DNA from: Takakia lepidozioides | Taxonomy: Eukaryota; Plantae; Bryophyta | Assembly (NCBI GenBank): GCA_030704615.1 | Contig: CM060731.1 | Span: 89,528,001-89,592,000 of the forward strand | Reading direction: 5' to 3' | Length of the DNA stretch: 64,000 nt | In this document: in pieces, positions 1 to 61,654 of the stretch | Layout: each line of letters starts with the position of its first letter | How positions within the stretch are numbered: the first letter of the stretch is position 1 | Notes under the pieces: generated by a model | What the model was told of the DNA's origin: nothing | The model's input: only the letters and a program-made list of their open reading frames with translations | Databases searched by the model: none | Position numbers and translations under genes: made by a program

Positions 1-1667
1 AAATCACATGACTATCATGTGCTCATGCAGCAAATTATACCGCTTGCTATCCGTGGGCTCATGCCAAGTGGTCCTCGAAGGGCCATTTTGCGAGAATGTC
101 GTGTATTTAAGAAGTTGTGTGCAAAAGTGGTGAATCCTGTAAAGTATGAGGAATTCAGAACTGAAGCAGTTCTCACTCTGTGTCTTATAGAGAAGGAGTT
201 CCCACTATCATTTTTTGATGTGATGACACATCTGGTTGTTCACCTAGTGGATGAGTTGTACTTATGCGGGCCCGTAGCATCTCGTTGGATGTACCCCATG
301 GAGCGGGCAATGAAAGATATGAAGGGCTACGTAAGAAACATGGCAAGGCCCAAGGGGAGCATGGCAGAAGGATACCAATTTGAAGAAGCATTGGGTTTTT
401 GCACAGAGTATATGGCAGGATTTGATGGAAGTGTACGAAGGGTGTGGGATGCAGATGAGGCAGAATCTGTGGAACGTGAAGTTGTGGAAGGAAGTTCTAA
501 AGCCCGAAAATTGAATGACCTGTGTGATATTGTACATGAGTACATCATTCAGAACCATCCTCGTATGTCAGTCATGTTGGGGTAAGAAATCTACTTCATT
601 GACATTCAGATTTCCAAGTTTTAGTCATTTATCATTAGTTGGCATATGGCGTCTTTTCAAATCTCCCACGCCACCTCTGTCAATCTTTGGCTGACCCTCG
701 GATTGTGACAGGATATATGAAGCAGAGTCCACACGGATAGAAGCCAGACGACGCTTGTTTCGTGAGGAGCAAGGGCTGGAAAACATGAGCAATCCCACGA
801 CAATTCAGTACCCTCCTGATTTGCATCCTTGTCCTCCATTTGCTGTTTGGCTCCCTCAAGGTGTACGGGATCATCTCTCAATTCAATCAGATGGGCTTGA
901 TCCTACAACACGTGAGGAATTACTGGATCTTTCAAGGCCTCCATCATTTACTGCCCTGTCATTCAAGAGTATGACAGCGTATGGTAACCATTACAGGGTT
1001 ACATCCCCCGGCATGAACACAACAAGTATGGTGTCTTTTGATTGTGGAGTCTCATCTGTTTTCCAGCACCAGCCCATTACCAACAATTCAGGCAATGACA
1101 TGGAGGAACCTACAAGATATGTGGGTCTTATAAGGGAGATTTTGCAAATTGACTATGGTCAAACACAGCCTATAGTGTTTTTGTGTTCGTGGGTACGGGC
1201 GAGTCGCGTGGGTCGTCAACCTATGTCAATGAAGCAGGATGATGCTGGCTTCATACTTTGTCAATTTTAACCGTATGCTTCCACCTTCTGAGCAACCTTT
1301 TGTGTTTCCTGGCCAGGTTGATCAAGTGTTTTTTTCTGATTGTGTGAAGGAGCCGGGGTGGAAAGTCGTCCTGGAGAAGAGCCCCTGAGCACGTAGAGTG
1401 GTCTGCGATATATCAATTGATAATGATGATGTGGCGGAAGTGGAAGGATTGTTAGCCCCACAAAGACTAGAGGAGACTCTGGTTACTGATGGCCCAACAT
1501 GCAGCCGAGCGGTACCGGTTACTCCAGAGCAGGTGGCCTCCTTGTACCTCCGAGCACCCCGTATACGTGGTGATGATGTTCAGCCAACCCTTGGACAAGA
1601 TCAAGTCTGTGATGAAGATAATGATACATGTAGTGACCCAGACATAGATGAGGATGATGAAGATTAG
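1..1667 (+). pseudogene. CACTA transposase (Tnp2 family, DUF4218/DUF4216-type C-terminal part), intron-containing and frameshifted
   Basis: Motifs (K)SHDYHVLMQ, FFDVMTHLVVHL, GPVASRWMYPMERAMK, GSMAEGY and YVGLIREILQIDYG-VFLCSW-DDAGF, then an acidic tail. Probable intron at about 583-711. Confidence 0.9.
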
Positions 1668-2035
1668 ATATGCGCGATTTGTGCACTCCAGTTATAGACC
1701 ATGCATGATAGTTTAAGGTGGTAACACTCCCTTCGCATTCCCATTAAGATATCATGCTTGGACACTGGATTTTATGATCAATTACGGAGTGTTTTCCTTT
1801 CAGCACCCTTTATTCATTTGTTGTTGCAATTGGCTTTGGACCAACCCGTGCTGGTACCATTGCCATGGGTTGTGCCTGCAATGTTTTCTTGCCATGGATT
1901 CGGCACACGCCACGAAAGGCCATCCAGACCATCCTCTGGAAATGCTCCAATGTTGTTTCAAACATCTCCACATTGCAATGGATACAACACTGACATTAGA
2001 TGAAGGAAAGTGAGACTAGACCTCCAGCCAGCCGG

Positions 2036-2170
2036 CTTTCCCACATCAAATTGAAGGGGATCTGTAGATTATAGATAACGGCTGTTGCCTTCTCAATGTC
2101 TTTTCCAATCACCTCTGCAATGAACTGGGGTATAAGATCCTTCAAATCACAAGTTTGAGCATCATGCACA
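2036..2170 (-). pseudogene. RPS3A: Captured fragment of 40S ribosomal protein S3a (eS1) gene inside CACTA A
   Basis: Translates as AQTCDLKDLIPQFIAEVIGKDIEKATAVIYNLQ..FDVGK, matching the plant RPS3a C-terminal region (QSCDLKDLV.KFIPE.IG.EIEKAT..IYPLQ...KFDLGKLM). Confidence 0.75.
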
Positions 2171-2267
2171 AGCCACTTACGGGGATAGAGTTTCCAATGC
2201 GAACCATTGGTCTTTTATTGATAGCATTGTTGTAAAATACATGGACCAACATGGTCAATTTCGGGAA

Positions 2268-5200
2268 CACTACAACAGATTGCGGCTTTTATGACTCCCA
2301 TGGGTGCGCAGTCATGACAGATTTGTGGCAGAAATGCCATTTGCAGTCGTAAAATGCTTTTGAAGTCATAATGCAGGTCTGGAGAAGGCGTATATGCGAC
2401 TGCATGGCTTCGGACTCTGCGCAACACAGGTCAAACATGTTTGACCACGAATATTGGCATGGCAGATATGACTACCAATCATGGTCATGGCTACACTGGA
2501 ATGACGTGTGCATATTGCAAGACAGACATATGACTTCATGACTCTCACTCTAATGCATTATGCCAGATCATCACATGGATGAATCACTACATGACTACAC
2601 GTGTCGACACATGCTTTTCTGGTTATATATATAATATATGAGTATTTATATCTTAAAAAAATGGAGACTCTTACCACTAGAATGAATTAAAAAAAACCCA
2701 AAAAAAACAAAGATTTAAAAAAAATCACATCAGCTGGTAAGTGCACAGTGTGTCGCCCTTGTGGTTTGGGGTTCAAACCCGCTGCCCTTATCCCGTGTGT
2801 GGGATTGTTCGAGACGGTATGTCTTGACGTTGATCGTCCTGTAGGTCTTATGGCCCATAAATGAAGGCGGGTGAATTTTCCCCCTCCTCAAGGGCTTGTG
2901 GTTTCCTTTAAGAGAAAAATAAAAATAAAAAAAAATAAAAAATGGGCTTTTAGGGTTTACAAAAAGGTTAAAAAACTTAAAAAGTTGCCCATCACTGTAG
3001 CGTGAACAGACTTAGAGCGAGCGGGAGGGGGAGAGAGAGAGAGAGTTGGGACTTAGAGCGAGCGAGCGGGAGAGAGGGCAAACATGCATGGGAGGCCAAT
3101 CCAACATTACCTAACTACAGACACAAGCAGCACACACTAGAGGTCATCTTGGGTTCATGTTCAATCAAATCCTCTATGGGTCATGACACAAGGTCGAGGA
3201 CAATGTGGTGAGGGCACCTTCTTCTTCGACCTATTTCAGCCTATTTTGCCCTCTCATCAGACTCGGCCCTGAATTTGAATCATGGAGCAGAGCTGGCATG
3301 AGTTTTTTTAAGATCCTTCACGAGGGTGCGACCGCAATCGCAAGGTGTGGTTTTTTTTTAATGTACGATGTGCAGAATTTTGTCCATCCTGCAAATGTGG
3401 GTTGTTGGCTCCTGTTAGTACCATGATTTGATATTCTTCCTGATGTTTACAAGGTTCTTGGGAGAGTCAGCTTGGTCTTAGCAGACCGTGTTTCAAAGTC
3501 TGTCTGCTCAGCTGCACCGTGGTGCAGGTTCTCACTGACCAATCCGACATTACCTGACTACAGACACAAGCATCACACACAAGGTCAAATCCTCCATGGG
3601 TCATGACACAAGGTCAAGGACAGTGTGGTGAGGGCACCTTCTTCTTCGACCTATTTCAGCATGTTTTGCCCTCTCATCAGACGTCCTGAGATGCATATTG
3701 AATTTTGTAAGTTAGCTCATTGCTCGTTGATAAGTAGGGTTGGGGGTGTTTGCTGGAACAATTCTAGGCTGTCATTGTCAGCTGCTAGCAGGAAGGCAAG
3801 GATGTATGCATAGATAGCTGAAGGATTTTGTGCAGAGGCATAGATAGCTGAAGGAGCAGGGATAGAGTGTGGGCCCAAATTCGTCCAAGAGGGCCGGATT
3901 TCAAGCTCCATTATTTCAGTGTCATCCATTCAGCCAGGGATTTCCTGGTGACATTGCCAAGGCTTTACTCGCAACACGATGCTTGTAAAGCTTCCTTAGC
4001 TTGAATGCTGATTATGCTTGAATTATTAGGTTTGTAAAGCCAGTTTTGAAATTTTCATGGTAATCAGCTCTCTTGAAAATCTGTAGGTTGCAAGCCATTT
4101 ACAACGGGCCGTGGGTGGACTGGAAGACAGCCATTGAAAGTCCTGGTGCAAGTTAATACCAGTGGAGAGCAGAATAAGTTTCATATTCCCTTTTGGTGCT
4201 AGTTATCTTCATGTATGGTACTGTTGAACACCAACAATCTTTTGGTGAGATTCTGTCTTGGTGCACATGTCTGATAAAGAAAGACGGTAATGTTTGTTCT
4301 GAAACCTGAAGGCGTGAAATGATTCAACACAACAAGAGCATTACGCGTGTCACAGTACAAGCTGTAAGAAAGCAAGAGATACATAGTTATACAGTCAAAC
4401 AGACAACTATTAGTTTCTGTGGAATCTCTTGCCAATGGCAGGATGGGTTGGGAATAGCCAAGTCAGGAGGTGAATGCCTGTCAAATTACCACATGTCCTT
4501 TTGAACACTGCCCTGCCCTGGTGGACATGTACGCCAATTGTGGGTGCATTGAGGATGCAAAGGGAGTGTTCAACACTGTGGCTGAACGAGATGTGGTGTC
4601 GTGGAGTGTGATGCTTGCTGGGTATGCACAGCTGGGGTGCGGGATGGAGGCTCCAACCTTTGAGAAAATGATGGGGGAAGGGGTGAAGGCCGCCGACATA
4701 ACGTTTGTGTGCGTTTGCAGTGCGTCTGCAGCCCTGGAAAAGGGCAAAGAGATCCCTGGTGACATCATCAAATCTGCAATTGTACCAGATGTCATCCTGA
4801 ACATGGCTCTGGTGGCCATGTATGCTAAATGTGGGAGCATTGAGGATGCCAAGGGAGTGTTCAATGCTATGGCTGAACTAGATGTGGTGTCGTGGAATGC
4901 GATGCTTGAAGGGTGTGCAGAGCAGGAGCGCGGGATGGGGCGTTGGACACCTGAAAGCAAATGATGGAGAAAAGGATGAAGGTACATTCTTCAACATATT
5001 TCACCCTGTTTTCCCTGCTAGTGTTTGCTTTGACAATTCTAGGCTGTCATTGTCAGCTGCTAGCAGCAAGGCGAGGATGTATGCATGATTTGTGCAGAGG
5101 CATGGACAGCTGAAGGAGCAGGGATTTCGTGTGGGTCCAGATTCATCCAAGAAGGCCAGATTTCAAGCACAAGATTACCTGTGATTCCCTGTGGATCAAT

Positions 5201-7460: not shown

Positions 7461-9454
7461 ACACAATGAACTTACAGGGATTGAGCTTCCAATGCGAACC
7501 AGAAGTCTTATATTGATAGCATTGTTGTAAAACACATGGACCAACAATGACAGTCTCTGGAATGACATATAGTACAGTAATGACATATAGTACAGCATGC
7601 CGCTTCCAATTGACCATCTACCCATGTAGGTTTCTTGTAACTATCCTTCCACAGGGAATCATAGGTAATGTGGAGCTTGAAATCCAGCCCTCTTGGATGA
7701 ATCTGGACCCACACTCTATCCCTGCTCCTTCAGCTATCCATGCCTCTGACAACCTACAATTCTACCAGCAAACACCCCAACCATACTGGAGTGGAGTTCT
7801 TCCCCAAAACACCCCAACCCTACTTATCACAATCTGAAATGCATCTGCTTCTCTCTGTAGTCCAACAGGCATTCGCCTTTTTGTCTCCATTGTCCCACCA
7901 TTGGGGTCGGAAAGTGTTCACCCCAAAGCTTCTCCTCACCTCTATTATATGTTTTTGGATACTTCCCTGCTGCCACACTGGCAGTAATTTGCCAAAGTCT
8001 CTCCAAACCACCACAGATCTACCCAACGACCTAACTTACAGAATTCAATATGCATCTTGCGGCCGAGTCTGATGAGAGGGCAACACAGGCTGAAATAGGT
8101 TGAAGAAGAAGGTGCCCTACCACATTGTCCTTGACCTGTCTTGAGGATTTGACCGATGACCACTTGTGTGTGCTGCTTGTGTCTGTAGTCAGGTAATGTC
8201 GGATTGGTCTGTGAGATCAAAATGAGTAGTCAGAGATTGAAACACGCTTGCTAAGACCAAGCTGACTCTCCCAAGAACGGCGAGCTCGCTTCTCCTCGTC
8301 TCGTCTCCTCCTCCTCTTCTCCTTCGTGCATCATTTGCTCAACGCCTCCATCCCACGCCCCTGCATATCCTGCTATCATCGTGTTCCATCCCTCAGCTAT
8401 GTGGTGTGGCGCAGGAGACAAAAAAACGCCAAGTCCCAGCCCTCCTTTCTGTTCACGATTACACTAATGGGCAACCTTATTAGCAATTTTTTAACTTTTT
8501 AAAACCTAATGGGCAACCTTATTTGCATTATATGTGCCTTCAAAATGACACGTGTAGTGATGTAGTCGTATAAATAGAGCTCTGAAACCATCTTCAGTCA
8601 TGGAGTCATAAGATTCCATGAAACGTCGTCCACGTGTAGTCAAACATATCACACTAGTCATATAAACCATCCCTGTCATCATGGTCAACAATGTTTGACC
8701 AATGCTCCCTAACTTTCCGGAGTCATGTAGTGATATCCATTACTACAAAGTCATAAAACTAAAACTGTAATGCATTTCAGCGCTCTGTAGTCATGTACCT
8801 AGTGCAGTTTTTATTACTCCGCCAAAGCCGTAGTCCTAAAAACGCTCATCTCTTGTAGTGAGCCCATTGAAGGCTTGTATTTTCAAGTTTGGGAGTGCAA
8901 GAAAGGAAGGAAGGGGCTGGTTTCCCTGTAGGGCATGTGTGGAGCATGCCTTCAGCCCATTGAGGCTCTTGTTTTCAAGCTTTAGAGAGCTAGAATGGAA
9001 TGGCTAGGGCTAGTTTCCACTTGGGGTGAAAGAAAAGCACTTGTAGGGCATATGTGAGTTGGGGTTTCAACTTCAAGCTTGAAGGGAGCACAACTCTTGA
9101 AGCAGCAGGTGCAAGGGCTGGATTAGGTGCGAAGGGGCGTGCTATGGTCAAGAAAAGCGCGTGAATGAGTGCCTACAAGGGCTGGAAGTCAGCCATGTTT
9201 GGTTAGTCGCCATAGGGATCAATGACGTTGTTTTGTAAGTTAAAATGAAGCTTGTGCACTTAGTTTTGATTGCAAATATCTTTTTTTGGAATTAGAGCTA
9301 CTATTGGTGGTGTGTGGGAGCAAGAATACCTTGCTGATTTCCTCACAGACGCCATAGCTTGGTGCAAAGAAGCCTAGAGTCCAAGAGACACAAACCCTAG
9401 CTTGGCGTGTCTAAACCCTTGGGAGAAATGGCTAAATTGCCATGAACAGCCATG

Positions 9455-9996
9455 GATGGGGCTGTGACGGGCTGTGACTGGCTGTGATAGGCTGTGCCCT
9501 ATGGCCTTTGGGGCTGTGATGGGCTATGACAGGTTGTGACATGTGGCCTGTGGGGCTGTGATGGATTGTGATGGGCTGTGACGTGCTGTGATAGGCTGTG
9601 CCCTATGGTCTTTGGGGCTGTGAGAGGCTGTGAGAGGCTGTGATAGGTGGCATGTGGGGCTGTGACCGGCTGTGATAGGCTGTGACGGGCTGTGACCTAT
9701 GGCCTTTGGGGTTGTGAGAGGCTGTGAGAGGCTGCGACATGTGGTTTGTGGGGCTGTGATGGGCTGTGACAGGAGACCTGTGGGGTTGTGACCGGTTGTG
9801 GCCTGTGGCTTGTGGGGCTGCGATAGGCTGTGACAGGCTGTGGCCTGTGATGTTGTGACCCTGTCACATGTGTAGGGCTGTGACAGGCTGTGCCCTGTGG
9901 CGTTTGGGGCTGTGGGGCTGTGACAGGCTGTGACCTGTGGTCTGTGGGGCTGTGATGGGCTGTGACGGCTGTGACCTGTGATCTATGTGGGCCTGT
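9455..9996 (+). repeat. Degenerate minisatellite of about 10-bp GGCTGTGA(C/T)N units
   Basis: Dozens of GGCTGTGA-like units interleaved with TGTGGCCTGTGG/CCTATGGCCTTTGG spacers, upstream of gag. Confidence 0.9.
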
Positions 9997-10929
9997 GCTA
10001 GTCTGTGGTGGCTCGTGTTGACCTGTGGACGGCCTGTGCTAACTCATGGAGGCACTGGTGGACTGCCTGAGGACTGGCATGTGGTCTTGAAGGCCAAATT
10101 TCGAAGCTCGTGGAGGGCGGTTTGAGGAGTATCTTCATGATATTCCCATGGTCATGCAAGTGAGGGAAGAGAGGAGAGGAAGAGTGTTGGGATGAGGGCA
10201 TGTTGGGGTTAGGCATTGCTTTAGGTTCTCTTCCTCGTAGTTTTCCACCCTCTCATTAGGCCGAGACCTTTCCGTAAGTGGAGACAAGAGTCAGTCCGGG
10301 TTTGGGCTGGGGTGTCCTTGCAGGAGCAACACCGTGGAGTTATTTTTGGTGTGGGGGGGGGGGGTTGTCGTTCTGATTTCTTATGTTTGGATCCCATCCT
10401 TACCTGCATGCTTGACTGTGCGCCATGTTTGTGTGGGCGCTTGTTTTTACAGGTGATTGGTCCGGATTTGATCACCGGCCAGTCCTAGAGCATGTTGTCG
10501 ATGGTGAGGCTGGGGTGATGATCAGTCAGACCATCATTGTTTCTCCTGTGGTGAGGTTGGAGGTGATGACCAGCCAACCATAGGAGTGTTTGCGGTGGAT
10601 GCAGGTGCAGGTGTAGGCTATGTTAGGAACCTAGTATTCCAAACCATAAGCCGTAACAGGTTCTCCATCCGGTTACCTTGTGGAGAGGGGGTTAGGGACA
10701 TGTTCATGACTGGTTGAGTGACAGTTAGTCAACACAGAGGTGCCACTAGTTGCTGGGGAGAGTGACGGTTCAAGCACTAGCGATACTAGGGGATACACGA
10801 GACGAGGTGTGCGGTTTATGCCACCTTCACCTCCAGTGTCTTCTACGGAAGGTTCTGATTCAGATTGTGAATCGGGAGGACTCACACCGGCGGTGCAAGT
10901 TGTTTCCTTGCAAATTGTTGTGGGACACA

Positions 10930-12318
10930 ATGGAGGAGATGTATGGAGCTACCAAGGGGCCACGAAAGTACTTTGGGGCGGTGGGCACCATCGAGTTGGA
11001 TGATTTTATCCAAGAGTTTGATAGTTGGTGTGATTTGCAGCAAATGCGCAATCCACAACTATTTACGCCTCATGGCATGGAAGGGGCTGTTTCAGCACCT
11101 TGAGGGGCCGACTATGGATGATTACCATGAGTTCAGGCGGGGGCATGAGGTTGAGATCAAGGAGTGGAGGATGTACTGGTCACCCGACTATGTCTCCATC
11201 ACTAGGGGCACTAGAGCCACGAGGGCAGTGGCTACACCTGCCGCTGCACCGGCAGCTTCAACAAGCAGCATTGGGACTAGTGGGACTGGTGGTACCGTAA
11301 CTACAACATCCACCCAAGCCACTACTGCACCAGCACCAGTACCCGTGCCTGCCTTCAACCCTGTTGTGGAGTTCTTCGAAGAGTTGAGAGGGAACTACCA
11401 AGGGGTAAGGACAGAGAAGTTGCGGAGCTTGCAAGAGTTCCAACGGAAGCCTACTGAGAGCTTGAGGGAGGCTTTCACTCGCATGAGGCGCTTGATAAAT
11501 GTAACCCAAGGGGTTACGGAAGCTCAGACAGTCCAATTCTATTATGGGATATTGGACAAGGAGCTGAGGAGAAGGGTGCGGGATGCAACTCTCCTACAAG
11601 CGGCCCAACCCACCTTAGCAAATGTGTAGAGTGGATAGACCTCAATATGGTGGAGGAACGAGTGGTCATGGTGGGATTTGCTAAGGAGATACCACGGGGT
11701 AGTGGTGCTCCTAGCCAACCACTACCTCAACGTGCTCAAGGCAACGAGGGGGCCCAGGTGAAGCCTAGGGAAGGAAAGAAAGGACCTCAGATGCAAGGGT
11801 CTCTCCCTTCATTTGCACGCCAACAATGGGCGGAGGTGGTGTGTTGGACATGTGGAGGACCCCATGTCAAGAAGGATTGCCCAGAGGGAGGCAAAGGGCC
11901 GGCACATGCACAGCCTGCACAGTTGCAGTGTGGGCATTGTGGCAAGCACGGGCATGGAGAGGCCCAGTGTTATGGTTTGCATCCTGAGTTGCGCCCAGGC
12001 CAGTTCCAAGGGAACAATGGTGGCCGGGGGCGAGGTGGAGCAGCCTAGAGAGGATGAGGTGCAAGCCAAGGGCAAGCTCAACATGGCCAAGGACGTGGAG
12101 GTCAGGGTGTTGACCAAGGCATGGCCAACTGGCTTAAGCAGCTAGAGCAGAGGCTCGCTGCCATGGCTACAGCTCAGGTGGTAATGGCTCCAAGGCCGGA
12201 TGGTCCACCTCTTGCTCCTGAGGGAGGAGATATGGGAGGCATGGGATTCATGTGTGGGGCAGCATTACCACTAGTGCAAGTGGAGTCGGCGGCGGCAGTG
12301 ACCCGAGGAGCAGCATGA
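10930..12318 (+). pseudogene. Gag with two CCHC zinc knuckles (frameshifted)
   Basis: ELDDFIQEFDSWCD and EFQRKPTESLREAFTRMRRL (retrotransposon gag-like). Knuckles CWTCGGPHVKKDC and CGHCGKHGHGEAQC. Confidence 0.85.
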
Positions 12319-12849
12319 GTTCCTGAGCCATGAGGTGCAGAGGTGGAGTTGGATCCACAACGTGGGGAGGCAAGCCGTCAGGCTAGGCTTCCTCAGTCAT
12401 TCACATTGGCGGAGACAGTGTCGACGTCATCCATGGCACCTAGTTCTCGCCCGATTGTTACTAAGGTGGAGGTTACTATGCCATTGGGGAGAGCCACACG
12501 GGCAACATCACTACCTGTTGCCAAAGCTACGACAGCTAGTGTGCTGCTGTGGGCGGCCACATCTGTGTGCCAGGCTCTATTGTTCTCGGCTACCATGATT
12601 GCGACGCCGGGGGTAAGACTAGCTGAAGTGTTTAGGCTGGCAGCTATACTTTGTGAGAGTGGGGAGGTTACTTCATCTTCTGCGGAGATAGTGGGAGTTG
12701 TAGTGCCGGAGGGATCCTCGGATTTGAGGGTCAAGACTGCCACGGCGACGCCATGGCAAGCTGCAGTTGCCAGGTTGGCGGAGCTGTCAGCTAGGCCAGC
12801 CATTGAGCGCGCCATGGTAACACCTGGAGTTGTCATGTTAGACAACCAG

Positions 12850-13200
12850 GATGATATTTTCTGTTTGAGTGGACCGGCAGGCAAGAGGTACCGGCCACTA
12901 CGGGTCTTGTTAGACTCGGGAGCTCAGCCATTGATACTGGGCAAAGCTGCTATTGCAGGCTTGGGCCTCACGAAGGTAAATATAGAGCCGTGCCTTTTCC
13001 AGATACAAACATCTTTGGGAGGATCAGAGCAGGCTTGAGGCATGACATAGTGTGAGTTGGCTATCAGATTACAGCCGGATCATCCTACAGATGGCTCAGT
13101 GATTAGAGCCAAGGCCATTGTGACAGACGCGGTCTCGTCTGATTGGTGGGGCAGTGTTGTACCCCGTGGGCTTCACCCTGGATTTTTGGGAGGAGTCAGC
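12850..13200 (+). pseudogene. Retroviral-type aspartic protease
   Basis: RVLLDSGAQPLILG (D-S-G catalytic motif), followed by a degenerate (V)LIGG flap region. Confidence 0.8.
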
Positions 13201-13599
13201 TCCCTATAGGCCTGGATGGCAGTCAGGGGAGGGCCGGCGTGTGCAGCTCCTTGTGACGTTCATAGGAGGAGTTGCGGTTGCCCAGCGGGGCAAGATGCCG
13301 ACACTAGCAGCATTCACAGCTGCAGTGACTTGGCCTGGAGAGTTGCTAGAGGGCAACGCTTATTCAGAGGATGTGTCACCTCCAGCAGAGCAGGATGACA
13401 TGTATGGTATGGCAGAGTTGTCTGCCATGATTGCTTAGACTCCATTGTGGGGCACGAGCAAGGATTTATAGCAAGTTGCTGATCGACGGGTGCAACAAGC
13501 CTGGGTAGAGGCTTTTGTACCATCAGAAGAGGAGAAGAGTGCGGGGATTGCACGAGGACCACCTCAGTTGTCTCCATTGGACACCACACCTATTGTGTG

Positions 13600-14570
13600 G
13601 CAGTATCCGGATGAAGGCATTTGCCTTCTGGACTTGTTTGGGGGATCAACACTGGATTGGCTGCTGTGCTACAGGCAAGTGTATGAGTTTGGCGTTACTT
13701 GTATGTGGAGAGGGATGAGACTGCACGACGCGTCTCCCTACGCCATGTTGCTCAGTTGGTGCAGTAGTACCCTGAGTTGTTGTTGGTGTCTGCAGTTCGT
13801 GGATATCAGCAGGCCTTACCAGCAGACATTTCGTTGCTGGGGGCGCAAGATTTAGAGCGGGTTGGCTCCATTGATATGGTAGTGGCAGGTTGGCCCTGCC
13901 AAGAGCATTCATCAACCGGGCATGGCAGTGGATTACGAGACTCGAGGTCAGGTCTGTTTTGGGAGATGGTGCGGGTTTTGCGCCACTTGCAGCTTCATCA
14001 AGCTGTATCTCCAGCATACATCTTGGAGAATGTGCCACTGATGGGCAATTCTCGGGCCAGGGTGATGGCCATTGTGCATCAAGTCCGGTCGTGGCTTGGG
14101 TCAACAGTGTTGCTGGATGCAGCTGCAGTGGGGTCACTGGCTCATCGTCCACGGCTATGGTGGACTAACTTGATGCCACCCGCACTGCTCAAGCGTGCAT
14201 TTGATGGGATGCAGTGGCCAGCCCACCTCACAGTGGATAGTATTTTGGACACAGGGAGGCAGTCTCAACGTACGATGACCGTTCGCCTTTGGCAGTGGTC
14301 AACAAGGTGGGTCAACAACGAGTAGCACTACCTACACTGCTCAGCTTTCCTGGATCACATGCTTTTCGGGATAGTGGACCTGGCCTCCTATAGGATGCTC
14401 AGTTGCAGCAGTTAGTGGAGCCTAATGCCGATGAACGCGAGCGGGCTACGGGTTTTTCCACTAGGACCACGGCGGTGCATTCTCTTTCTGAGGCATCACG
14501 CCGTCGGGTGCAAGCAATGGATCTCAATTGCTTGACCTGGATCATTAGCCTGAGTATGGCTGAGGAGCGC
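13600..14570 (+). pseudogene. C5-cytosine DNA methyltransferase domain within the retrotransposon pol (DNMT3/DRM-like motif style)
   Basis: Motifs in canonical order: I GICLLDLFGG, II (RY)LYVE, III ADI, IV IDMVVAGWPCQ (catalytic PC), RSGLFWEMVRVL, VI YILENV, VIII AHRPRLWWTN, IX ERERATGF, X RRRV..AMD. Broken by frameshifts and stops. Confidence 0.9.
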
Positions 14571-15289
14571 AGGTTGCGGACAACTTCTCCCACTACATGT
14601 CCCTTGACAGACTCCCTGCCTATCGAGACGGTACAAGCAGTGAGTGGGGGCAGGTGAGGACCACGGGGTGCAGACATCCATGGCACACGTGGGAGGTGCT
14701 CGAGGTTCAGAGGGAGTTGGCAGCCAAGGCGGCGGTGATGGATGAGGTTGGGGATTCTTCTCGCGTTGAGGAGGTCCTTAAAAATGAGATGATGGGGCAG
14801 GATGAGGCCTTATCATTGACAGAGCAGGAAGTGGGCACTACTTAAGAGGTTGCAGCATAGCAACCACGGGACGCGTCTCCTACCTCTAAGTCTGCTGGAC
14901 TTAAGGTTGCAGTTATGGAGGACAATTGGGAGCTTGATAGTGGACCCAATGTCATCGGAGGAGAGAGACGACGTATATGGCAGTTCCTAATGGCTTACAA
15001 GAATTGTTTTGCCTCTCGTGCTACGGTGGAGGAGCATGAGAGACATGTTTAGGTGGTGCATCGACCGGGTTTGGTCAATCGGGATGCGGATGGATCGAGT
15101 CGCAATCAATGCACGAGCCAGCAGGATGACATTGGAGCTCGGTGGCATGGTGAGACGGACAAGGAGATGGTGCCGGGATGGCACGCATCTGCATTTTTGT
15201 GTATCTTGGCAGCGGGAGGTCAGATTGGACCTACAACAGGGATGACTGTAGACGGAGTGTCTGAGGACCCTGAGGCTAGTGATGAGCCA

Positions 15290-16600
15290 AGTGGTGCCAG
15301 AGATATACATGAGGATTCGGCTGTGTTGGACTACCTCCGTACTGGAAACACGGCAGCCACTGTGACTACCAAAGAGAGGGATCGGATCTTGCAACGAGCC
15401 AAAAAGTTCAAGTGGGAGGGGATATATCACCTGCTTCGAGTGTGGGAGGATGGTCCTATTGTGCCTCACCCAACACAGCGTGCACGGTTAGTGCGGCATG
15501 CCCATGAGGAGTTGGGGCATTTTGGAATGCGATGCACAGAAAGAGGGGCTCCAGTCTTCTTATCTGGTTCAGGCAAATGCCATCACAGTTTACTGCAGGG
15601 GCAGTATTGGTGGCGTGGTATGCATACAGAGGTGCAATAATTCGTGGCTAGGTGCATGGTGTGTGACAGGGTGCATGCTTCATTCAACGCCCCTACACCA
15701 CAGTTGCATCCTTTACCAATCATGGGATTGGGCTACAGGTGGAGTCTTGACTTCGCAGGAGCGTTGCCACTGACTATGCGCCACCACAGATATGTGTTGG
15801 TGATGGTGGAGCACTTCTCCAAGTGGATTGAGTTGGTTCCATTGCCTGACAAGGCTAGTGAAGGGGCTGCGTATGCATTTTTGGATCGTGTGCTTAGCCG
15901 ATTCGGTGCTCCAGCTGAGGTACTCACAGACCAAGGGAGAGAGTTCTTGGGGGAGTTTTTAGGCTTTGTGTGATAAAGCCTTGATAGACCACCGCACCAC
16001 TTCTCGGGATCATCCTGAGGCCGATGGCTTGGCAGAGAGAGTTGTTCAGACAGTGAAGAGGGATTTGCGCAACTATGGCTTGCAGAAGGGACACCTAGGA
16101 GATTGGGATCTTCAGGTACCTTGGTTAGCCATGGGCTACCGGTTCAGCAAGCAAACATCACTTGCCTCCTTCTCACTATATTTTCTTCTCTTTGGCCGAA
16201 AGCCGGATTTGCCTGCAGCCATTCGTAGGGACACTGCTCAAGTCCTTAACCTTGACGATCCAAACGTGTGGGTACGTGCATGTGATCAGCGTGCAGAGTT
16301 GTTCAAGAAAGTCATGCCCATGGCTTTTGAGAACCTTGCCATTGCACATCACCGTGATACATTGAGGTATGCCACTATACGTGGTGGAGGATATCGTCCT
16401 GGGGTTCGGAGGTTTAGCCCTGGTGACTATGTTTATTTACAGCAGACTGCGCCTACGACCTTGGATGTGACTGCATGACGTGTTATTCTGAGGGTTCGAG
16501 AGGTTTGTCCTCATGAGTCCTGATCTTGGAGGGTCGGGATGGCATGACCTGGAAGGACCATGTGCGTAATTGTGCGCCATGTCACCTTCCCAATGTCGAG
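15290..16600 (+). pseudogene. Gypsy integrase (HHCC, DDE core, GPY/F-like C-terminus)
   Basis: HEELGHFG..YWWRGM..CMVCDR, WSLDFAG..VLVMVEHFSKW, VLTDQGREF, HPEADGLAERVVQTVK, FSPGDYVYL. Confidence 0.92.
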
Positions 16601-16639
16601 GGCAGAGTTGACCCAAACTTGGCAGTGGTACCTGCAGGT

Positions 16640-16789
16640 TTGAGGTGCATGCTCTGTGGGTTTGCCAAAGGGGCAACCACTATGCTGGTGTGTGATCGAT
16701 GCTCAAGAGATTGGCACATGGGATGCTTGACACCACCTCTTGAGAAGGTTCCTGATGGATATTGGTTGTGTCCACACTACTTGGGATAG
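16640..16789 (+). pseudogene. PHD finger at the integrase C-terminus
   Basis: CMLCGFAKGATTMLVCDRCSRDWHMGCLTPPLEKVPDGYWLCPHY is the C4HC3 pattern. The last Cys is lost here but intact in copy 2 (WLCPRC). Confidence 0.9.
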
Positions 16790-17055
16790 TGACAATGGAC
16801 ATGACTAGAGGCAGCTAACAAGACATGGGAGGCCAAGCTCATATGAGTCAATATACGAGATCCCAGGCTCAAGTTCACAGGTTGCAAGACGGCGACTAAC
16901 GATGGGGCAACTCTTGCACCCAGCCTCTTTATCTATCGAGTTTGAGTGTGGTAGAGACAGTGGTGGAGGACTTAGTGAGGCTATGGTCACTATCACATCT
17001 TGTGGCTACCTGGACTTAGAGGGACCTAAGCACCAGCTAGGGGGGCGATTGTGGT

Positions 17056-17700
17056 GGACTAGTGACTGCCATAGTGGGCAACACAGTGGCAGCCTAGTGG
17101 TTGGACTAGTGGCTGGACTAGTGGTATACTAGTGTGTGGTGTGCACATGTGTTGTGTGGTTTTGGACAGCGATGTAGTTGATATGTATGTGCACGACAGC
17201 TGTCAAGTTATTTTACCACTAGTGTGGAACTAGCTAGGAAATAGCTAGCTTTTACATATTGATATTTGGGATTGGCCCAAGTGTCAATCCAGGGATCAAG
17301 GCAGATTTAGGCCCTGGAGTGGTTATCTTCACGGCAAGTGCGAGAGGCTCATCTTTCTCGAGTTGAGCCTCACCGCGCCTAGCTATGGCACCGTAGTGTG
17401 GATTCCCCATGGCGTGGGGTGCACTTGGCTTGACTTGTATTTGAGTGATGAGTTTATGTATGCATGAGTTTATGCTTCAGCTTTGTGAGCTCGCATGAGC
17501 TTGTGCTTGTATTCTTCTTCTTTATCATTGTGGTAGACTAGTGACTGCCATAGTGGGCAGCACAGTGGCAGCCTAGTGATTGATTAGTGGCAGCCTAGTG
17601 GTTGGACTAGTGGCTGGACTAGTGGTATACTAGTGTGTGGTGTGCACATGTGTTGTGTGGTTTTGGACAACGATGTAGTTGTGTAGCGATATGTATGCGC
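17056..17700 (+). repeat. Direct repeat of about 130-160 bp in the 3' non-coding part of the retroelement
   Basis: GACTAGTGACTGCCATAGTGGGCA..CTAGTGGTATACTAGTGTGTGG..GATGTAGTTG at about 17057-17180 and 17536-17681. Confidence 0.8.
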
Positions 17701-17714
17701 ACGACACATACTTG

Positions 17715-17867
17715 GATATATAGGGGATTGCACTTGGACTTAGATGACCTTGGACACTTGGGCCAACAACATAGCTAGGCTACCCTAGTCAATACTAGGG
17801 TAGCCTATGCCGTCGGCCCATTTGGGAAGAATTGAAATCTAAAACCAAGTGCAATCCCCTATGTATC
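17715..17867. repeat. Small foldback/MITE-like element
   Basis: Outer inverted repeat GATATATAGGGGATTGCACTTGG / CCAAGTGCAATCCCCTATGTATC. Inner hairpin TAGGCTACCCTAGT-CAAT-ACTAGGGTAGCCTA. Confidence 0.65.
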
Positions 17868-19534
17868 ACAGTGCGTCTCCTATGTCTAGGCCCATGTGTG
17901 AAGAATTGAAATCAATATACTAAAATGAAGTTGGATGGAAAAAACAATTGAAATTACAAATCTCCCACATGAAGGGCCAATCATGGCTCCAGGAAAGCCC
18001 ACTCTGCTATTTTTCACGAATTTCCAGCGACATTGCCCTACGGCCTTTCACGTGCTTTCTCTTTCTCAATGAACCTGTAGCTTTTAGGGAACTCCAAAAC
18101 GCATGGTGGGTGCGGTACTTTGTTGGGATGTTGGGCTCGTTGGTGCCGCGTTGATGACTATTGTTACAAGAGAGTGGGTTGTCATTGCTTTCTTTATGTT
18201 TGATATTTTTTGGGTTAGGTTTCTTTTTCTTTTTTTGATTGAGGGAGGGCTGCCGGACGGGTTGTTGTGCTTGGGGTTGTGATTTGGCTGCTTGTGTGGG
18301 GGGGATGAGAGCTGTTTGCATTATGGGCAGATTAGGGGGTTCAAACCTCCCTTAGTTCTTGTAATTCGATGTAGAGATAAGTGAACGATGAAGACATACA
18401 TTGCCGCGGGGAAGGTAGTTGGGTTGTGACGGTTGATGTCTACAAAAGGGGGGACTTAGGCGGGTGCACCTTCATGGGGCGATTGTATTTTGCGGTCGGC
18501 TCCCTCTAGTTCCACTATTTTGAATGACGTGGCCTTGCAACATTTGGCCGGAAAATATGCCATGTCCGACAGTAATTCGCCTGACTTGACAAGGATGCAG
18601 ATTTCATTAAACATATGATCTCTCCCTCCCAATTTTTAGAATCAGTTTTGGTGTTCACTATCCAACATGATCAACTCCTACATGACACACAATAACCGTT
18701 GGAATTGGAATTCCATTTCAAATTCGTAGTCCTCATGGGGTGCTTGAAGACATAGTGGCTACGAAGGCCAATTTATCCCCCACATTTCACATACAAAACA
18801 ACCCGTAGTTTTTTTTCGAATTTTTGGTCTCAGTTTTTGAGGTAACACTTTGTATGTGCCACAGGCTCCAAAGATGGTGCCCATTTTTGAGGGAAAAATC
18901 AACCCGCTATAACAAATATGTGGTCAAACTAAAATTTCCCCTCCTTTTGTGGAGTGAACTTGAAAAACTCATTTTTTTTTTGTTTTAATCTGTCAATTAC
19001 AACAGTGCCCGAATTTGCTGTTATTTTGCATGTGGATGTGCTAGTTACATAGACATTTGTATGGCTCAATTTTGTGGATGATTGTGGGTAAGAAGTTACA
19101 CCCTCATCCATGAGGGTATGTATAGCATTGGGAGTGGCCCACCAAAACTTAGTTGGTCCTTTAAGGGTGAATGCGGAGGTTTGCTCCCACATTGGCTTCT
19201 AGATTGAAAACATGTTTCCACATATACGTAAAGAATTGGGGCTGATTTCTCTTCGTTAATATCGTTTCATTATACATCGTAATAGCGTACGAGGGCAATA
19301 CAATAAAAATAATGCACAGTGCCGATTACACTATGTGTAACGCACACCTCCGACATTTCCTCATCTTTTACCTCCAAGATCTTTCCTTCACTACTCCCAA
19401 TTTTTTCTATCATCAAAAGACAAAATGAAAGGAAAAGAAATCATCCCATTTGTTTACATAGAGGAAGACCCTCATGTCGGGCGCGCTAGAATTTTATGCC
19501 CTAGGGCCTTGGGCTACCCCCCCTCGTCCTGACG

Positions 19535-20672: not shown

Positions 20673-23146
20673 ATGGCGGTGGGCGTGCTGTCCCTGCAGG
20701 GCTCCTTCCGAGAGCACATTGCATGTGGGTTTCCCTTCCCTTCCCTTCGCACCTGTCTTTTGCTTGCTACTGGGTGTGTGGCTGCCTGTGTTGTGCGTGT
20801 ACGTGTGCTGTCCGTGTCGTAGCGTGTAATTGCGCTGGATGTTCTAAAGAATTCAACACCAGAGTGTCGAATTTCGAACGGTGTTCTCACGTGCATTTCG
20901 AAGACTGGGTTGGCAACCGTTGAATTCTGTCTCTTGTAATTGCACTATTATGTAAGTTGAGAATTGCACTTTAATTACCACAATTGTTCGGTAGACAGAC
21001 ATAAGAAGCTCGTGAGCATGGGGATGGTCTAACTTCAATACATGACGAAGACACAAAATTGTTGCGTTAGGGGAGAGCTGTAACCAGCAAAGGTAGGCCA
21101 CCAGATGGAACTAGAAACCGTGTAATTTGGTGAGTTGGTTTTGAGTATTTCGTCATGCGATTGCGATCAGGTTTAAGGAAGCTAGGTGTGGAAGCCGTGG
21201 AGGTGAGGAAACCAGAGCAGTTGGTGGGACTGTCGGGCCTCATCATACCTGGTGGAGAGAGCACCACCATGGCCAAGCTCGCTGAGGAGTACCACCTTGT
21301 CAGTAGATGCACCCCTCCCTGTTTTTTAATTGTTCATGTTCGTCTCTACGTCTATATCGTCCTCCTTCCATTTTTCTCTTTTTCCTTCACAAAATGTCTC
21401 CTCCGGTTGAAGCAGGTGGATCCATACAGTTTTCTTGATCTAGAGCACTTCAGCTTTTGTCTAATCTCCATAGCATGTGGGTGTGTTTTCTTGTATTTTA
21501 GGTTTTGGTTCATCACGTGCTTTATTCAAGTGGATCAGTTACTATTGGTACATAGTGCATAAGCCTTCAAATCTGGATAGAGAAACTGATTCTATGATGG
21601 ATGAGTTGCAGTTTCCAGCGTTGAGAGAGTTTGGGGTCTCAGGAAAACCGCTGTGGGGAACATGTGCAGGGCTCATCTTCCTGGCCGATAATGCTGTTGG
21701 TGAGTGTTAGAGTTATTGGCTAGGGGACATGTTCTCCTACTTATTACAAGATCTATGTAGGATCTCTTAGGTTGTTTGTCTTTGATGCAATCACCTGAGG
21801 TGTGCAAAAGCAATTGAACTTCATATAGGGAGAGAATTGTGACTTAGAGACCTCTGGAGGATGACCCTTGAGGTTTGTATGGCCTGCGCAGGGCAGAAGG
21901 AGGGCGGGCAGAAGCTTCTTGGTGGTCTAGACTGTACTGTGCACCGCAACTTCTTTGGTAGCCAGGTATCCAGTCTCTCTCTTCTGTCTTCTTCTTGCAG
22001 CCCTTGTTCTTAATTTTTGGAAGTTTCTAGTTGCCAGATATTGCCGCTGTTGGAGGTTTTAACTCTTATGAAAAAGCTCCAATTCTTAGATATTTGTTAG
22101 GCTTTAGGGGACCTCTTGGAGGGACTAGAACTCTAGTTACACACATGGAGGGTATTTCTGGGTATCTGTAGTGGGTGGAAGGATGAAGAGATGGGAGGGG
22201 GCATTGCTAATGGACCAGTGGGTGTGGACCAGTTGAACAGCTTTGAAACCGAGCTTCCTGTGCCAGCACTGGTGGCAGCAGAAGGAGGTCCTCCAAGTTT
22301 TCGGGCAGTGTTTATCCGAGCACCGGCCATCATAGACGCCGGTCCTTCTGTGGAAGTGCTGGCTGATTACAGTGTGCCAACAGTCAGTCCCCAACCAGCT
22401 CCATCTTCTGCATCTGAGCAGGTCCACACAGATTCTCTCAGCCATACTGCATTGGCATTATTTTTTGCACACAGAAGAACCTACCAGTGAGGGCACTGCA
22501 ACCAGGAAAGAGATGTCCCTGCAATTGATACTGGGATTGGCCACTACTGTTTGATTTTTGTAGGCCACACTATGTTGGAGAAATAGTTTGCTTACCAGAG
22601 TGTCAGGGTTGTACGTATGCAGACCGAAGACAAAGAAGTGCAGAAAGTGATAGTGGCAGTAAAGCAGAACAATTTATTGGCGACAGCATTTCATCCAGAG
22701 CTTACCTCTGACATGCGGTGGTAGGTTTTACACCTTCCTTTGTTTGTGTATGTGGGTCAATCTAGCAGATGGTAGCCTGTGTAATTTTTCAGAGATGTGC
22801 GCTGGGACATGTGGCACATCTTCACCAAGTATGGCCCAACTCTTGAGTTTGATGATTTGAGCAGCATTGCACAAAGTTCGAGAGTCAATGCTATTGTTGA
22901 TTCCTTTTATTACCTACATGAAATTCTCCCATTGAAAGCTGTTGCCATCTCCTTTGTCTCTTAGTTGGATTTGTTTCTTGCAGGCACAGTTACTTTCTAA
23001 AAATGGTGAACGAGGGGAAGGCTGAAACTTCCATAACAAAGCAGAAGGACTTAGTGGTGATGGCTGGGCTGGCTAGGGCATCATCTCAAGGTAGGGACCT
23101 CCCTGTCTTTAAAGAGACAAAGTACTTGAGCTTTGAGCTACAATAG
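20673..23146 (+). CDS. PDX2: Pyridoxal 5'-phosphate synthase glutaminase subunit PDX2 (7 exons: 20673-20724, 21171-21298, 21612-21699, 21892-21965, 22233-22421, 22623-22720, 22984-23146)
   Basis: [37 protein letters not shown] (catalytic Cys), [20 protein letters not shown] (His/Glu). All introns are GT-AG and the frame stays open. Confidence 0.96.
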
Positions 23147-23563
23147 TAAATCCTTGTCTCTGTACAATGACATTCTTTAGCTGGTGTTAACATTCTTTCT
23201 CATTAAGACAATTCATTGAAGAACATTCTCAGTGATGAGATTGTCTTCATAATTCTGGTGTCAATGCCTTCAGCCTGTATGGAGGCCTCTTACAAAAGTT
23301 GAAACTTCCAGTTTTACTTTGTTAGTGTTACGCAGCTTGTTACCCTACATTCTCTGTGGGACTAGAGCTCTGAACATGGCTGCCACTGTCCCAGTTCTTA
23401 CAATGGATCACTTGGTTTGCCACAATCTCCTCTTGGAAAGCTCCTCTCACCTTTGGTCTGGCTTGCTGATTGAAAAGAGAGACATGTACTACCAGGGCAA
23501 CATCAAGGTCTTCACTATTCTGTTGGTTTGAAAGCTAATCCAAATGCAAGCTCCATTGTTTAA

Positions 23564-39300: not shown

Positions 39301-40333
39301 ATGGCCTTTTTTTATTGAAAGATACGGAGGGATGTTGTAATTCACCATGGTCACCGGCCAAGTGGAATGACTACATGACTGGACAGAGAATGGGTTGACC
39401 CCATCCGAGGAGAAGCCGAGGCGGACATGTCGTGGGTCCTCCAAGAGAAAAGGCCACATCTCTTCAGTATGCCTCCATGCTTGTGAATCTTGTGGCCCGC
39501 ACACCTTTCCCGGGGGGCTCCGATGCGAGGCGTGCCATCTCATCAGTTTTGCCAATGAGGGGCTTCGGTAGTGTGCCTGTAGTCGCGGGATGATTGGAAA
39601 GTAGTGCATTTTCTGGCACCATCCCCATGTCGGCCCCATATCATAATCAGTGTCATTCATATCTCTAAGTAAAACCTTACGTCTTGTAGCGGTTGCAAAA
39701 AAGTAGAATGCAATATACAAGTGTATTGTGGCGCGGGTATACCTTGTGCGGGGCTTTCTTCCCTTGAACATCATCCCGATATCGGTCTTTGTTGCACTTT
39801 GGACACTTGGTGAGTTTTGCATCCTCTCCGTAGTACAGGGTTTTATCACATGGACATGCATGAAAAATCTTATAGCCCATCCCCACAGCATCCAAGGCTG
39901 CTCTTGCCTCTTTTCTTGATCGTGGCATTCTCGGCTTCAAATGTGGGGCAAGGATGTAGTCCGCAATAGTCCACATTATGGCGGACATACCCACATTGCT
40001 TATGCCAAACCGGATTTGCAAATTCAGCAACAACAAGATGGTTGAAAGTCTACTCACTTTGGCCCCTTCGTATAAGGGAGTTTTGGCCTCTTTTTCCATG
40101 TCATTCAAAGAGTTTGTGTCCTCATCTACCATCTGATGCATTAAGAGGTCCTCCATTGCTGCCACATCCTCATGCATAATTCCATTGTCATTGTTGTCCT
40201 CATCATCGGAGACCGCCATTTCAGATGGGATCGGGTCCCTTTGATACGCACCCCCCTCCGAAGGAACAAAATCCCGGTTCATGACAAGATCATGAACTTC
40301 ATGAATTAACGTCGTGGGGTTGTGGCCGGCATC
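36357..40333 (-). pseudogene. CACTA Tnp2/TnpD transposase with introns (putative first exon 42108-42444)
   Basis: PLYEGA..HACPCDKTLY..CPKC..RY, YFPIIPRL, DGVNPF..STWPV..NYNIPP, WTMHDYPG, PMHIEKNV, GLKSQDYHNL, FFDIQVHLVVHL, WMYYLERYMK, GSMAEGY, YFGELESIL, EQVFF, then an acidic tail. Confidence 0.92.
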
Positions 40334-55700: not shown

Positions 55701-56105
55701 TGGGATACCCCTGAGATCCCATATTTCTTAGGCCTTTTGACATCCCGTATACCCCAGGGGCCCCCTGGGTACCTCCCAAACCCCCTCCCCAAACCCCTAT
55801 CTTATGGTTACGGGGTGCCCTCCGGGCACCCACTCGTTTCTATATATGGCCCACCCCCGAAAGGGGGCAGTAGCCGCAAGGCGAAGTGGCTCTTAGTTAC
55901 GTCGGCCTCGGCCGGAGTCATCTCTCTCTCAGTCACACTGGATGTTTCTCTAGTACAAAGGTAGGCCAACCCTGCTGCATCTTCATGTACATCCTTAGCA
56001 CCACCAAGCTCCTCACTGATCTCTGGATCGTCCTGTACACTATCTATGACCAATCGCATGGGATGGACCAGCCCAGTTGGAGGAAAATCAATATTTCGCA
56101 GCGAG
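52790..56105 (-). mobile_element. DNMT/PHD Gypsy family copy 2: end of RNaseH, integrase and PHD, interrupted by a LINE
   Basis: Same peptides as copy 1: DVHEDAA.LAYL.T, VTAKERDRILQRAK, HEEVG.HFG, YWWRGM, HPKADGLA, and an intact PHD CMLCGHAGGAATMLVCDKCSRGWHMGCLTQPLEEVPSGEWLCPRC. Confidence 0.9.
54550..55929 (+). mobile_element. 5'-truncated non-LTR retrotransposon with CCHC knuckle and restriction-like endonuclease (RLE)
   Basis: 10-bp TSD CAGTCACACT at 54540-54549 and 55930-55939, and a (TC)n tail. Peptides CPLC..DTWPH...CTHP..RQNQAV, CPDILLV..IHFIEFTYCND..KYAPLL..GW..ITAGTRG. Stop at 55731. Confidence 0.85.
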
Positions 56106-61648: not shown

Positions 61649-61654
61649 GGATTT

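Follow-up and report, generated by a model that had tools for sequence, protein, structure and literature searches.

Gypsy retrotransposons of the kind that carry their own DNA cytosine methyltransferase (DNMT) have so far been described mainly from algae. The nearest is KnitGypsy-Dnmt3 of Klebsormidium nitens, for which the available part of the description (PMC5890265) reports a Gypsy domain set, an unpermuted DNMT3-type enzyme within the polyprotein, DIRS-like repeats in place of two complete long terminal repeats (LTRs), and purifying selection between lineages. The same text interprets the capture as confined to the K. nitens lineage and already contains the proposal that an element-borne DNMT methylates the element's cDNA (de Mendoza 2018). 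We analyzed a 64,000-nucleotide stretch of the Takakia lepidozioides genome (GenBank assembly GCA_030704615.1, contig CM060731.1, positions 89,528,001 to 89,592,000; "the window," in whose numbering positions are given) that holds, at 10930-16789, a decayed relative of this element. The window element is a land-plant branch of the KnitGypsy-Dnmt3 kind. Its family shares the domain set, the type of enzyme, the repeat structure, and signs of purifying selection between lineages, and differs in its land-plant hosts, its many copies, and the placement of the DNMT at the end of the Gag open reading frame (ORF), before a conserved stop.

Other published elements resemble the family in part, as far as the available portions of their descriptions go. 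SymbioDIRS-Dnmt3 also places a DNMT3-type enzyme in a retroelement, and this enzyme methylates CG in yeast, but the element is a DIRS element (tyrosine recombinase class) of a dinoflagellate and is described as an independent capture (PMC5890265). The EpiLTRs and DAM-LTRs likewise join a DNA methyltransferase to a chromatin reader in LTR elements; they differ in using Dam and a DNMT4-related enzyme with a chromodomain, in Cymbomonas and Euglena, and their authors set them apart from "streptophytes (Gypsy-DNMT3)" (bioRxiv 10.64898/2026.05.21.726589). REM1 and Gypsy-7a_cRei of Chlamydomonas carry a PHD finger on a green-lineage Gypsy polyprotein as a proposed insertion guide, but no methyltransferase is named for them in those portions (PMC9940879, PMC6673714). 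The fission yeast elements Tf1 and Tj1 share a self-priming primer site, and in Tj1 a stop is required where Gag ends, whereas their LTRs are ordinary, the stop lies before the protease, and they have no methyltransferase (PMC4600332).

A review places transposon methylases as absent from land plants such as tracheophytes (PMC6338049), and the available parts of PMC12344493 and of the preprint speak of "streptophytes" without naming bryophytes. The accessible text of PMC5890265 mentions neither PHD fingers nor Marchantia nor moss, and its Fig. 4c and main supplement may show a PHD; three of its supplement files, in the portions available, do not mention PHD, Marchantia, or Sphagnum. Klebsormidium protein P0126 carries a PHD. 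The available part of the REXdb paper mentions neither PHD, methyltransferase, nor Marchantia, and those of PMC6453930 and PMC11982613 add nothing further on the family. We found no description of the bryophyte family, its stop behind the DNMT, its primer-site geometry, or its chlorophyte sister group in the literature searched, which lay outside subscription papers, Repbase, and theses.

We searched the window for motifs by three-frame translation, scanned 14 open stretches with Pfam, and compared the locus with Marchantia protein P0012 by tblastn. The domains along 10930-16789 run in the order Gag, protease, C5 methyltransferase, integrase, PHD, all on the forward strand. Three of the 14 stretches gave Pfam matches above the cut-off, to PF00145 (E 1e-12), rve (E 1.9e-11), and PHD (E 9.4e-10); Gag, protease, and the integrase zinc finger scored below it and are colinear with Marchantia P0012 and with P0072 at 41-79% identity. 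Gag (10930-11970) is frameshifted and includes two CCHC zinc knuckles (11842-11970); PF03732 matches it weakly, and it is 59-79% identical to P0012. The aspartic protease (12802-13264) was placed by its LDSG motif, with the Asp at 12913, and by homologues. The DNMT3-like C5 cytosine methyltransferase fills 13616-14570 and was assigned by PF00145, homologues, motifs, and structure search. The initial annotation had reported a full C5 methyltransferase motif series here, and all the motifs it named were located; the series comprises DLFGG (13631), GWPCQ (13888), ENV (14026), HRPRLWW (about 14143), EPNADERE (about 14420), and QAMD (about 14514). These motifs do not form one reading, being spread over several frames of a broken copy.

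ORF2 starts at 14861 and keeps, up to 15100, a 12-codon remnant of reverse transcriptase (RT; 15015-15050) and the tail of RNase H, about 1.25 kb of RT-RNase H having been deleted. The DNMT had been placed between protease and RT remnants; the order is correct, with RT reduced to these 12 or so codons. The integrase (15290-16475), identified by Pfam and homologues, has an H2C2 finger, a DDE core (LDFAG, TDQG, AERVV), and a C-terminal part. The PHD finger (16646-16786; Pfam and motif alignment) forms the extreme end of ORF2, with no chromodomain downstream.

This copy is a dead, internally deleted element. It has 15 in-frame stops in aligned blocks (the family's natural stop falls outside these blocks), and the frame changes between most blocks, once immediately 3' of DLFGG. 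Residues 45-473 of the intact relative P0072, comprising RT and most of RNase H, have no counterpart in the window copy, and one contig of run X12, a putative RNA run, has 1,284 letters between window positions 15014 and 15051. The element extends beyond 16789 to 17706 with split repeats. A search of the window for the 5' repeat A1 and its primer site found none, so the left end lies outside it. A probable 5' untranslated part (8861-10929, forward strand), with a decamer tandem array at 9457-9980, is covered by family contigs; its left limit is uncertain, the sole basis being a CACTA-type end at 8860. DNA run X1 gave 83,950 contig records on the 9.4-kb stretch, mostly at 90-99% identity, indicating that the organism carries many diverged copies. 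Contig depth, when summed, comes out about the same for Gag, DNMT, and integrase, although it is not a measure of copy number. Within 10159-10605, two X1 contigs with short flanks lack 424 and 445 bases, respectively, bounded by GT..AG; these are possibly copies of a spliced 5' leader. A second, diverged copy on the reverse strand (52797-54547; 74% identical) keeps integrase, PHD, B repeat, and junction and has lost its DNMT part.

The family is real, family-wide in its arrangement, and old. A DNMT query returned 69 proteins among 4,248 candidates; the named ones come from Marchantia polymorpha, Calypogeia fissa, and Sphagnum (51-71% identity), and proteins of these plants hold parts of the order Gag-protease-DNMT-RT-RNase H-integrase-PHD. 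For loci we used the best 80 of 129 confirmed metagenome stretches, picked by DNMT, which represent a peat-moss-like family (the linker of L006 resembles Sphagnum fallax P0043). The full order is present in 15 of the 80, 13 of them distinct, and the others are mostly cut by contig ends. Among loci with room, RT follows the DNMT in 47 of 48 and a PHD is present in 25 of 28. As a check free of this bias, we used an RT-RNase H query and took the best 120 of 2,841 matches among 7,973 scored. On the DNMT-before-RT side, all 22 proteins with at least 300 residues upstream have a DNMT (P0135 only as a weak fragment), as detected by a profile built from part of the same proteins; a further 57 begin too near RT to judge. 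On the other side, 11 of 14 proteins have the DNMT after RNase H. None of the 19 outgroup rows has a DNMT, and a PHD occurs in 51 of 55 proteins with room. Viral contigs yielded 10 weak loci at 33-53% identity.

We are highly confident in identifying an abundant bryophyte Gypsy-order element whose ORF1 encodes Gag, protease, and a DNMT3-like DNMT and whose ORF2 encodes RT, RNase H, integrase, and PHD. The initial annotation's proposal of a land-plant element of Gypsy order that encodes a C5 methyltransferase and links a PHD to its integrase is borne out. That annotation had also allowed for a one-off insertion, and the counts of 47 of 48 loci and 22 of 22 proteins speak against one. Neither the chance insertion of a host or bacterial methyltransferase nor a domesticated host gene retains any appreciable probability. 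We found no supporting points for either and regard both as refuted: the DNMT has the same position in dozens of loci from several genera, DNMT and RT distances correlate across 23 proteins (Spearman 0.56, 0 of 2,000 permutations), and the window copy is intronless and rich in stops.

Two other methylase-bearing groups appeared in these searches. Locus L072 also contains, in the same host DNA, a second and far more diverged DNMT-RT-RNase H-integrase family (1000-4300, reverse strand, and 17288-18287; DNMT 37-40%). The outgroup Gypsy proteins P0152, P0159, and P0161 carry a Dam adenine methylase, with a further PHD located between RNase H and integrase in P0152 and P0159; they fit the description of DAM-LTRs in the 2026 preprint.

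As a whole, the most satisfactory explanation, and one we consider somewhat probable, is that the window holds a dead copy of a bryophyte Gypsy family that packages its DNMT, methylates its cDNA, and uses the PHD to tether its integrase. The domain order, the family-wide retention of the DNMT, its DNMT3-like fold, the conserved stop, the split repeats, the TG...CA ends, and the 4-bp duplications are observed; the functional steps are weighed below.

The family enzyme is DNMT3-like in fold and motifs, from which activity is predicted. By sequence, the solved structures nearest to P0001 are DNMT3A (45 bits), then DNMT3C and DNMT3B, compared with a DRM-type entry (30 bits), M.HaeIII (25), DRM2 (18), and M.HhaI (17). 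A model of P0006 (predicted local distance difference test score [pLDDT] 92.7), compared with 48,161 chains, matched DNMT3B (Z 29.0, root mean square deviation 2.7, 279 aligned) and DNMT3A (Z 27.8), with lower scores for M.MpeI (Z 25.7) and M.HhaI (Z 23.0). All matches listed by Foldseek are DNMT3. Motifs I to X are unpermuted in the family and broken in the window copy. The catalytic Cys is present in 63 of 63 distinct copies and the ENV Glu in 58 of 63, both residues are invariant in 50 diverse proteins, and the catalytic motifs are retained across bryophytes, charophytes, and chlorophytes.

Sequence comparison supports long-term purifying selection on the DNMT. The proportions of nonsynonymous (pN) and synonymous (pS) differences between the window copy and 62 others are 0.23 and 0.73 for the DNMT and 0.17 and 0.69 for the integrase; this speaks against neutral evolution in all copies, an outcome the initial annotation had considered. 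Between host lineages the DNMT has a ratio of about 0.10 with near-saturated synonymous divergence (dS), whereas a nonsynonymous-to-synonymous rate ratio (Ka/Ks) below 0.2 goes with the KnitGypsy-Dnmt3 kind; within copies, dS is undefined for five domains. Within the family, we scored shared non-deamination variants in 26 peat-moss-like copies, and here the results argue against the favored explanation. The DNMT pN/pS is 0.37-0.63, against 0-0.04 for RT and 0.08-0.11 for integrase; the constraint gap between DNMT and RT-RNase H-integrase has Fisher p values of 5e-4 and 8e-6; and the 3-4 shared PHD variants are all nonsynonymous. Gag and protease are relaxed like the DNMT (protease pN/pS 0.38-0.42).

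This weaker recent constraint is what would be expected if the DNMT were an old passenger, relaxed in bryophytes, whose persistence owed something to structure, nucleic-acid binding, or inertia and not to catalysis. Two further points lean the same way and also burden the favored explanation. One sister-group protein, P0151, has no DNMT between RNase H and integrase, and KnitGypsy-Dnmt3, the closest tested enzyme, showed no methylation in yeast, a result that its authors call inconclusive in the available part of PMC5890265. We nevertheless think a passenger unlikely, given the retained catalytic motifs, a protein that is 63-73% identical between bryophyte lineages while synonymous sites approach saturation, and a within-family DNMT pN/pS that is still below 1 (p 0.002-0.07).

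The DNMT and RT lie in one frame in 33 of 50 loci, with a stop recurring 65 codons past the DNMT. In all 45 loci where the pattern was found, this stop is TAG or TAA followed by CAA CC. The window has TAG CAA CCA (14858-14866, forward strand, the end of ORF1), a full fit to the CARYYA motif that, 3' of a stop, promotes readthrough in plant viruses (available part of PMC4132726). Marchantia ORF1 proteins stop soon after the DNMT, and many ORF2 proteins start just before RT. The initial annotation's order from Gag to PHD is right (15 of 80 loci); the single frame that it raised is not supported for this family, as the conserved stop lies between DNMT and RT. In Tj1, a stop after Gag keeps the level of Pol low, according to the available part of PMC4600332. 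An ORF boundary behind the DNMT means that the enzyme would be made like Gag, likely at the Gag level in working copies, and readthrough of the stop would yield a rarer RT-integrase protein. Such an arrangement predicts an enzyme at capsid stoichiometry, a sharper statement than "part of Pol." Two observations count against it: the loci read CAA CCC, matching five of the six CARYYA bases, and in P0085, P0086, P0106, P0108, and P0127 a single frame spans DNMT and RT, which means that only part of the clade has the stop. Several algal relatives have no stop behind the DNMT.

A methyltransferase made at the Gag level and packaged in the particle would methylate new cDNA before insertion, and the benefit could be a copy that arrives methylated in silent chromatin. 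This role seems to us an even call. The base composition of the window element offers it no help, as its observed/expected ratios for CpG, CHG, and CC do not differ from those of neighboring elements.

The finger at the integrase end was described in the initial annotation as a C4HC3 PHD; the Pfam match agrees, except that the last zinc ligand is Tyr in the window copy (Cys in the second window copy). The nearest solved PHDs are those of CHD4, PHF12, PHF21A, KDM5B, and ATXR5, which presumably read unmodified H3. At the alignment position that we take to be the cage Trp for H3K4me3, 43 of 52 sequences have Gly and none has Trp. An acidic residue three before the first Cys is present in 18 of 52 and absent from both window copies, and bryophyte PHDs without it would have a weaker K4 read-out, which detracts from the favored explanation. 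Because this K4me0-reader residue is missing in bryophyte copies, binding to the H3 N terminus and Arg2 is the safer prediction. The PHD is predicted to anchor the integrase on nucleosomes whose H3 tail is unmodified.

The DNMT and PHD could instead act jointly on host chromatin, like the ADD and catalytic domains of DNMT3, so that the insertion site is methylated where H3K4 is unmethylated. The PHD type suits unmodified H3, and in a sister group with RNase H-DNMT-integrase-PHD in one frame, writer and reader could share a chain. In the family itself, however, they are on different ORFs, with the stop, RT, RNase H, and integrase between them, and a protease normally cuts such a polyprotein. 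The PHD is also canonical, its position at the integrase end suits targeting, and some algal elements that have no C5 DNMT carry a PHD (P0152 and, in the available description, Gypsy-7a_cRei). The DNMT3 parallel drawn in the initial annotation is therefore weak and not supported for this family, and we give joint action as little credence as the passenger reading. A complex prediction for the DNMT and PHD of P0108 was uninformative (score 0.02, mark 0.34).

The loci start with TGTC and end with GACA or a variant (TG...CA), and 7 of 8 loci having both ends show a 4-bp target duplication; only the right end is in the window. Its layout there is B1-GC-A2-B2, all on the forward strand: a purine tract (17035-17047) immediately 5' of repeat B1 (17048-17198, ending CACGACA), a near-palindromic B/A junction consisting of right end, the two bases GC, and left end (17191-17207), repeat A2 (17201-17526, starting TGTC), and repeat B2 with the element's right end (17527-17706). 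A2 is single copy in the window and was placed by analogy with loci L011, L036, L072, and L024; B2 differs from B1 by 4 mismatches in 151 columns and two insertions. The same junction is found at about 52796 in the second copy. Repeat B is present in 25 loci, a count that includes any duplicates. A purine run sits directly 5' of B in 21 of them; after B, 7 continue into A (5 cleanly), 17 stop, and 1 reaches a contig end. Elements have the form A-internal-B-A-B or A-internal-B, not two complete direct LTRs. In 12 of 20 distinct 5' ends, the 20 bases behind A1 can pair with A over 9 nt or more, compared with 5 of 480 control windows. The complement reaches 17 bases in two ends, usually falls at A 159-171, and in most cases follows a TATA-like box (at 138) by 25-35 nt.

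Split repeats, a purine tract, and a self-complementary primer site suggest a permuted LTR, and the corresponding replication route is plausible, if slightly short of an even chance. Reverse transcription would be self-primed at the site behind repeat A, and the plus strand would be primed at the purine tract before B. With the two sites so placed, the usual LTR synthesis would leave B-gc-A at each end; the integrase would cut the internal B/A junction rather than the cDNA ends, producing A-internal-B, and the same cut on a closed circle would produce A-internal-B-A-B. Some results fit this route poorly. A symmetric circle model expects B before A at 5' ends, an order that none of 24 rows shows; when ranked by duplex energy, just 4 of 20 primer sites outdo every control; and the window copy has no primer site. 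The A-internal-B form could instead come from recombination between B1 and B2 after insertion or from collapsed short-read assembly.

The junction also invites a different role for the DNMT, in replication, where it would methylate the B/A junction, or one of its two copies, and shield it from the element's own integrase or pick the junction to be cut. Conserved as a near-palindrome, the junction contains a CpG, only one of the two symmetric circle products is found (A after B1 in 7 rows, with no B before A1), and a methylase accompanies split or DIRS-type ends in KnitGypsy-Dnmt3, SymbioDIRS-Dnmt3, and Dam-DIRS, as far as their available descriptions show. The CpG is, however, on one arm only, the asymmetry may stem from the finishing of cDNA ends, and the available part of bioRxiv 10.64898/2026.05.21.726589 includes DAM-/DNMT-bearing elements classed as ordinary LTR elements. 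We rate this role improbable, though a little less so than joint action on chromatin. The PHD region has a low pS (0.47, against 0.69-0.84 elsewhere; window 16500-16790 and loci), which may reflect an overlapping nucleotide signal near the 3' end.

The element has the Ty3/Gypsy order protease-RT-RNase H-integrase with a DDE integrase. It has an rve domain and target duplications in place of the tyrosine recombinase of DIRS/Ngaro elements, and no chromodomain follows the integrase as in chromoviruses. Troyka was considered as a match for the split repeats and rejected; it has CG...CG ends and a 3-bp duplication and is known only from animals (PMC12440569), whereas the family has TG...CA ends and 4 bp, within the 4-6 bp of Ty3/Gypsy elements.

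A quick RT-RNase H tree of 115 Gypsy-type rows, limited to those with colinear RT-RNase H and built without Chlamyvir, Tcn1, Phygy, and Selgy references, splits them into 96 rows and 19 others, the latter with rice, Tanacetum, and fish elements among them (Shimodaira-Hasegawa-like approximate likelihood ratio test [SH-aLRT] 99). The 96 include Marchantia, Calypogeia, Klebsormidium, Closterium, Volvox, and a Coleochaete transcriptome protein; Klebsormidium P0095, P0116, and P0126 are among them, none tied to the published KnitGypsy-Dnmt3 copy. When 1.84 billion representatives were searched with a profile, 554 clusters had E <1e-30. Among the best 150 matches, 35 have the order RT-RNase H-DNMT-integrase-PHD and 55 are DNMT alone, and a Scenedesmus pol is among the profile matches. 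The sister group with RNase H-DNMT-integrase-PHD in one frame belongs to the same DNMT clade and has named chlorophyte members, two of its rows being species-named. The same DNMT clade in Closterium, bryophytes, Volvox, and Scenedesmus is unlike a capture restricted to K. nitens.

The DNMT phylogeny called for in the initial annotation was a quick tree of 77 rows, without host DNMT3 and without a named Klebsormidium DNMT. It sets 54 element enzymes as one group apart from 23 of prokaryote type (support 100). The element enzymes split by position, after RNase H (85) or before RT (92), and P0042 groups with the RNase H-DNMT-integrase rows. With host DNMT3 outside the tree, the DNMT may have been captured once and then relocated, or captured twice from the host. 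A more far-reaching scenario combines an ancient Gypsy lineage that predates the chlorophyte-streptophyte split and is still alive in bryophytes, permuted cDNA cut at the palindrome, a DNMT packed in capsid-level amounts that marks cDNA and governs the junction, and a PHD that picks unmarked nucleosomes. We regard this combination as rather unlikely; if true, a junction-governing DNMT would amount to restriction-modification-like logic inside a plant retrotransposon.

The role of retrotransposon-borne DNMTs has been a question since 2018. Many long open frames of the family are present in the annotation of Marchantia polymorpha, for which genetics and methylomes are available, and this makes direct testing feasible. 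Together with the primer site and purine tract, the split-repeat ends provide a specific model of how an integrase element could replicate when it has no ordinary LTRs; software that relies on paired LTRs would overlook such families. Element DNMT genes also inflate DNMT counts in bryophyte annotations.

The rest of the window holds several other features. A seven-exon PDX2-like vitamin B6 gene lies at 20673-23150 (forward strand), its first intron seemingly with a GG start or a shifted site. Of 78 proteins compared, that of Sphagnum compactum comes closest to its joined exons (73% identity), and a 38-row tree groups the gene with Sphagnum (97/92), the sole named bryophyte in the set. An exon-like stretch at 29930-30319 (reverse strand) has no Pfam match, and we take it to resemble the ankyrin-repeat protein AKR2. 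At 36500-40330 (reverse strand) is a decayed CACTA transposase (Transposase_21, E 1e-24; DUF4218, E 8e-33). A 4-kb near-perfect palindrome occupies 43415-47465, with arms of about 1.9 kb at 97-100% complementarity and a 250-bp center; the one stretch of it that was scanned gave no Pfam match, and it is a foldback element, a recent inverted duplication, or an assembly artifact. Inside the second copy, an open stretch at 55231-55731 (forward strand), with no Pfam match, resembles on visual inspection the terminal part of a non-LTR element. An RT-RNase H fragment of the same clade as the DNMT family, 76% identical to Marchantia P0005, lies at 61661-62980 (forward strand). The RT of an unrelated Gypsy element (60767-61717, forward strand; PF00078, E 2.5e-22) abuts it at about 61640, a join that represents either a nested insertion or a template switch.

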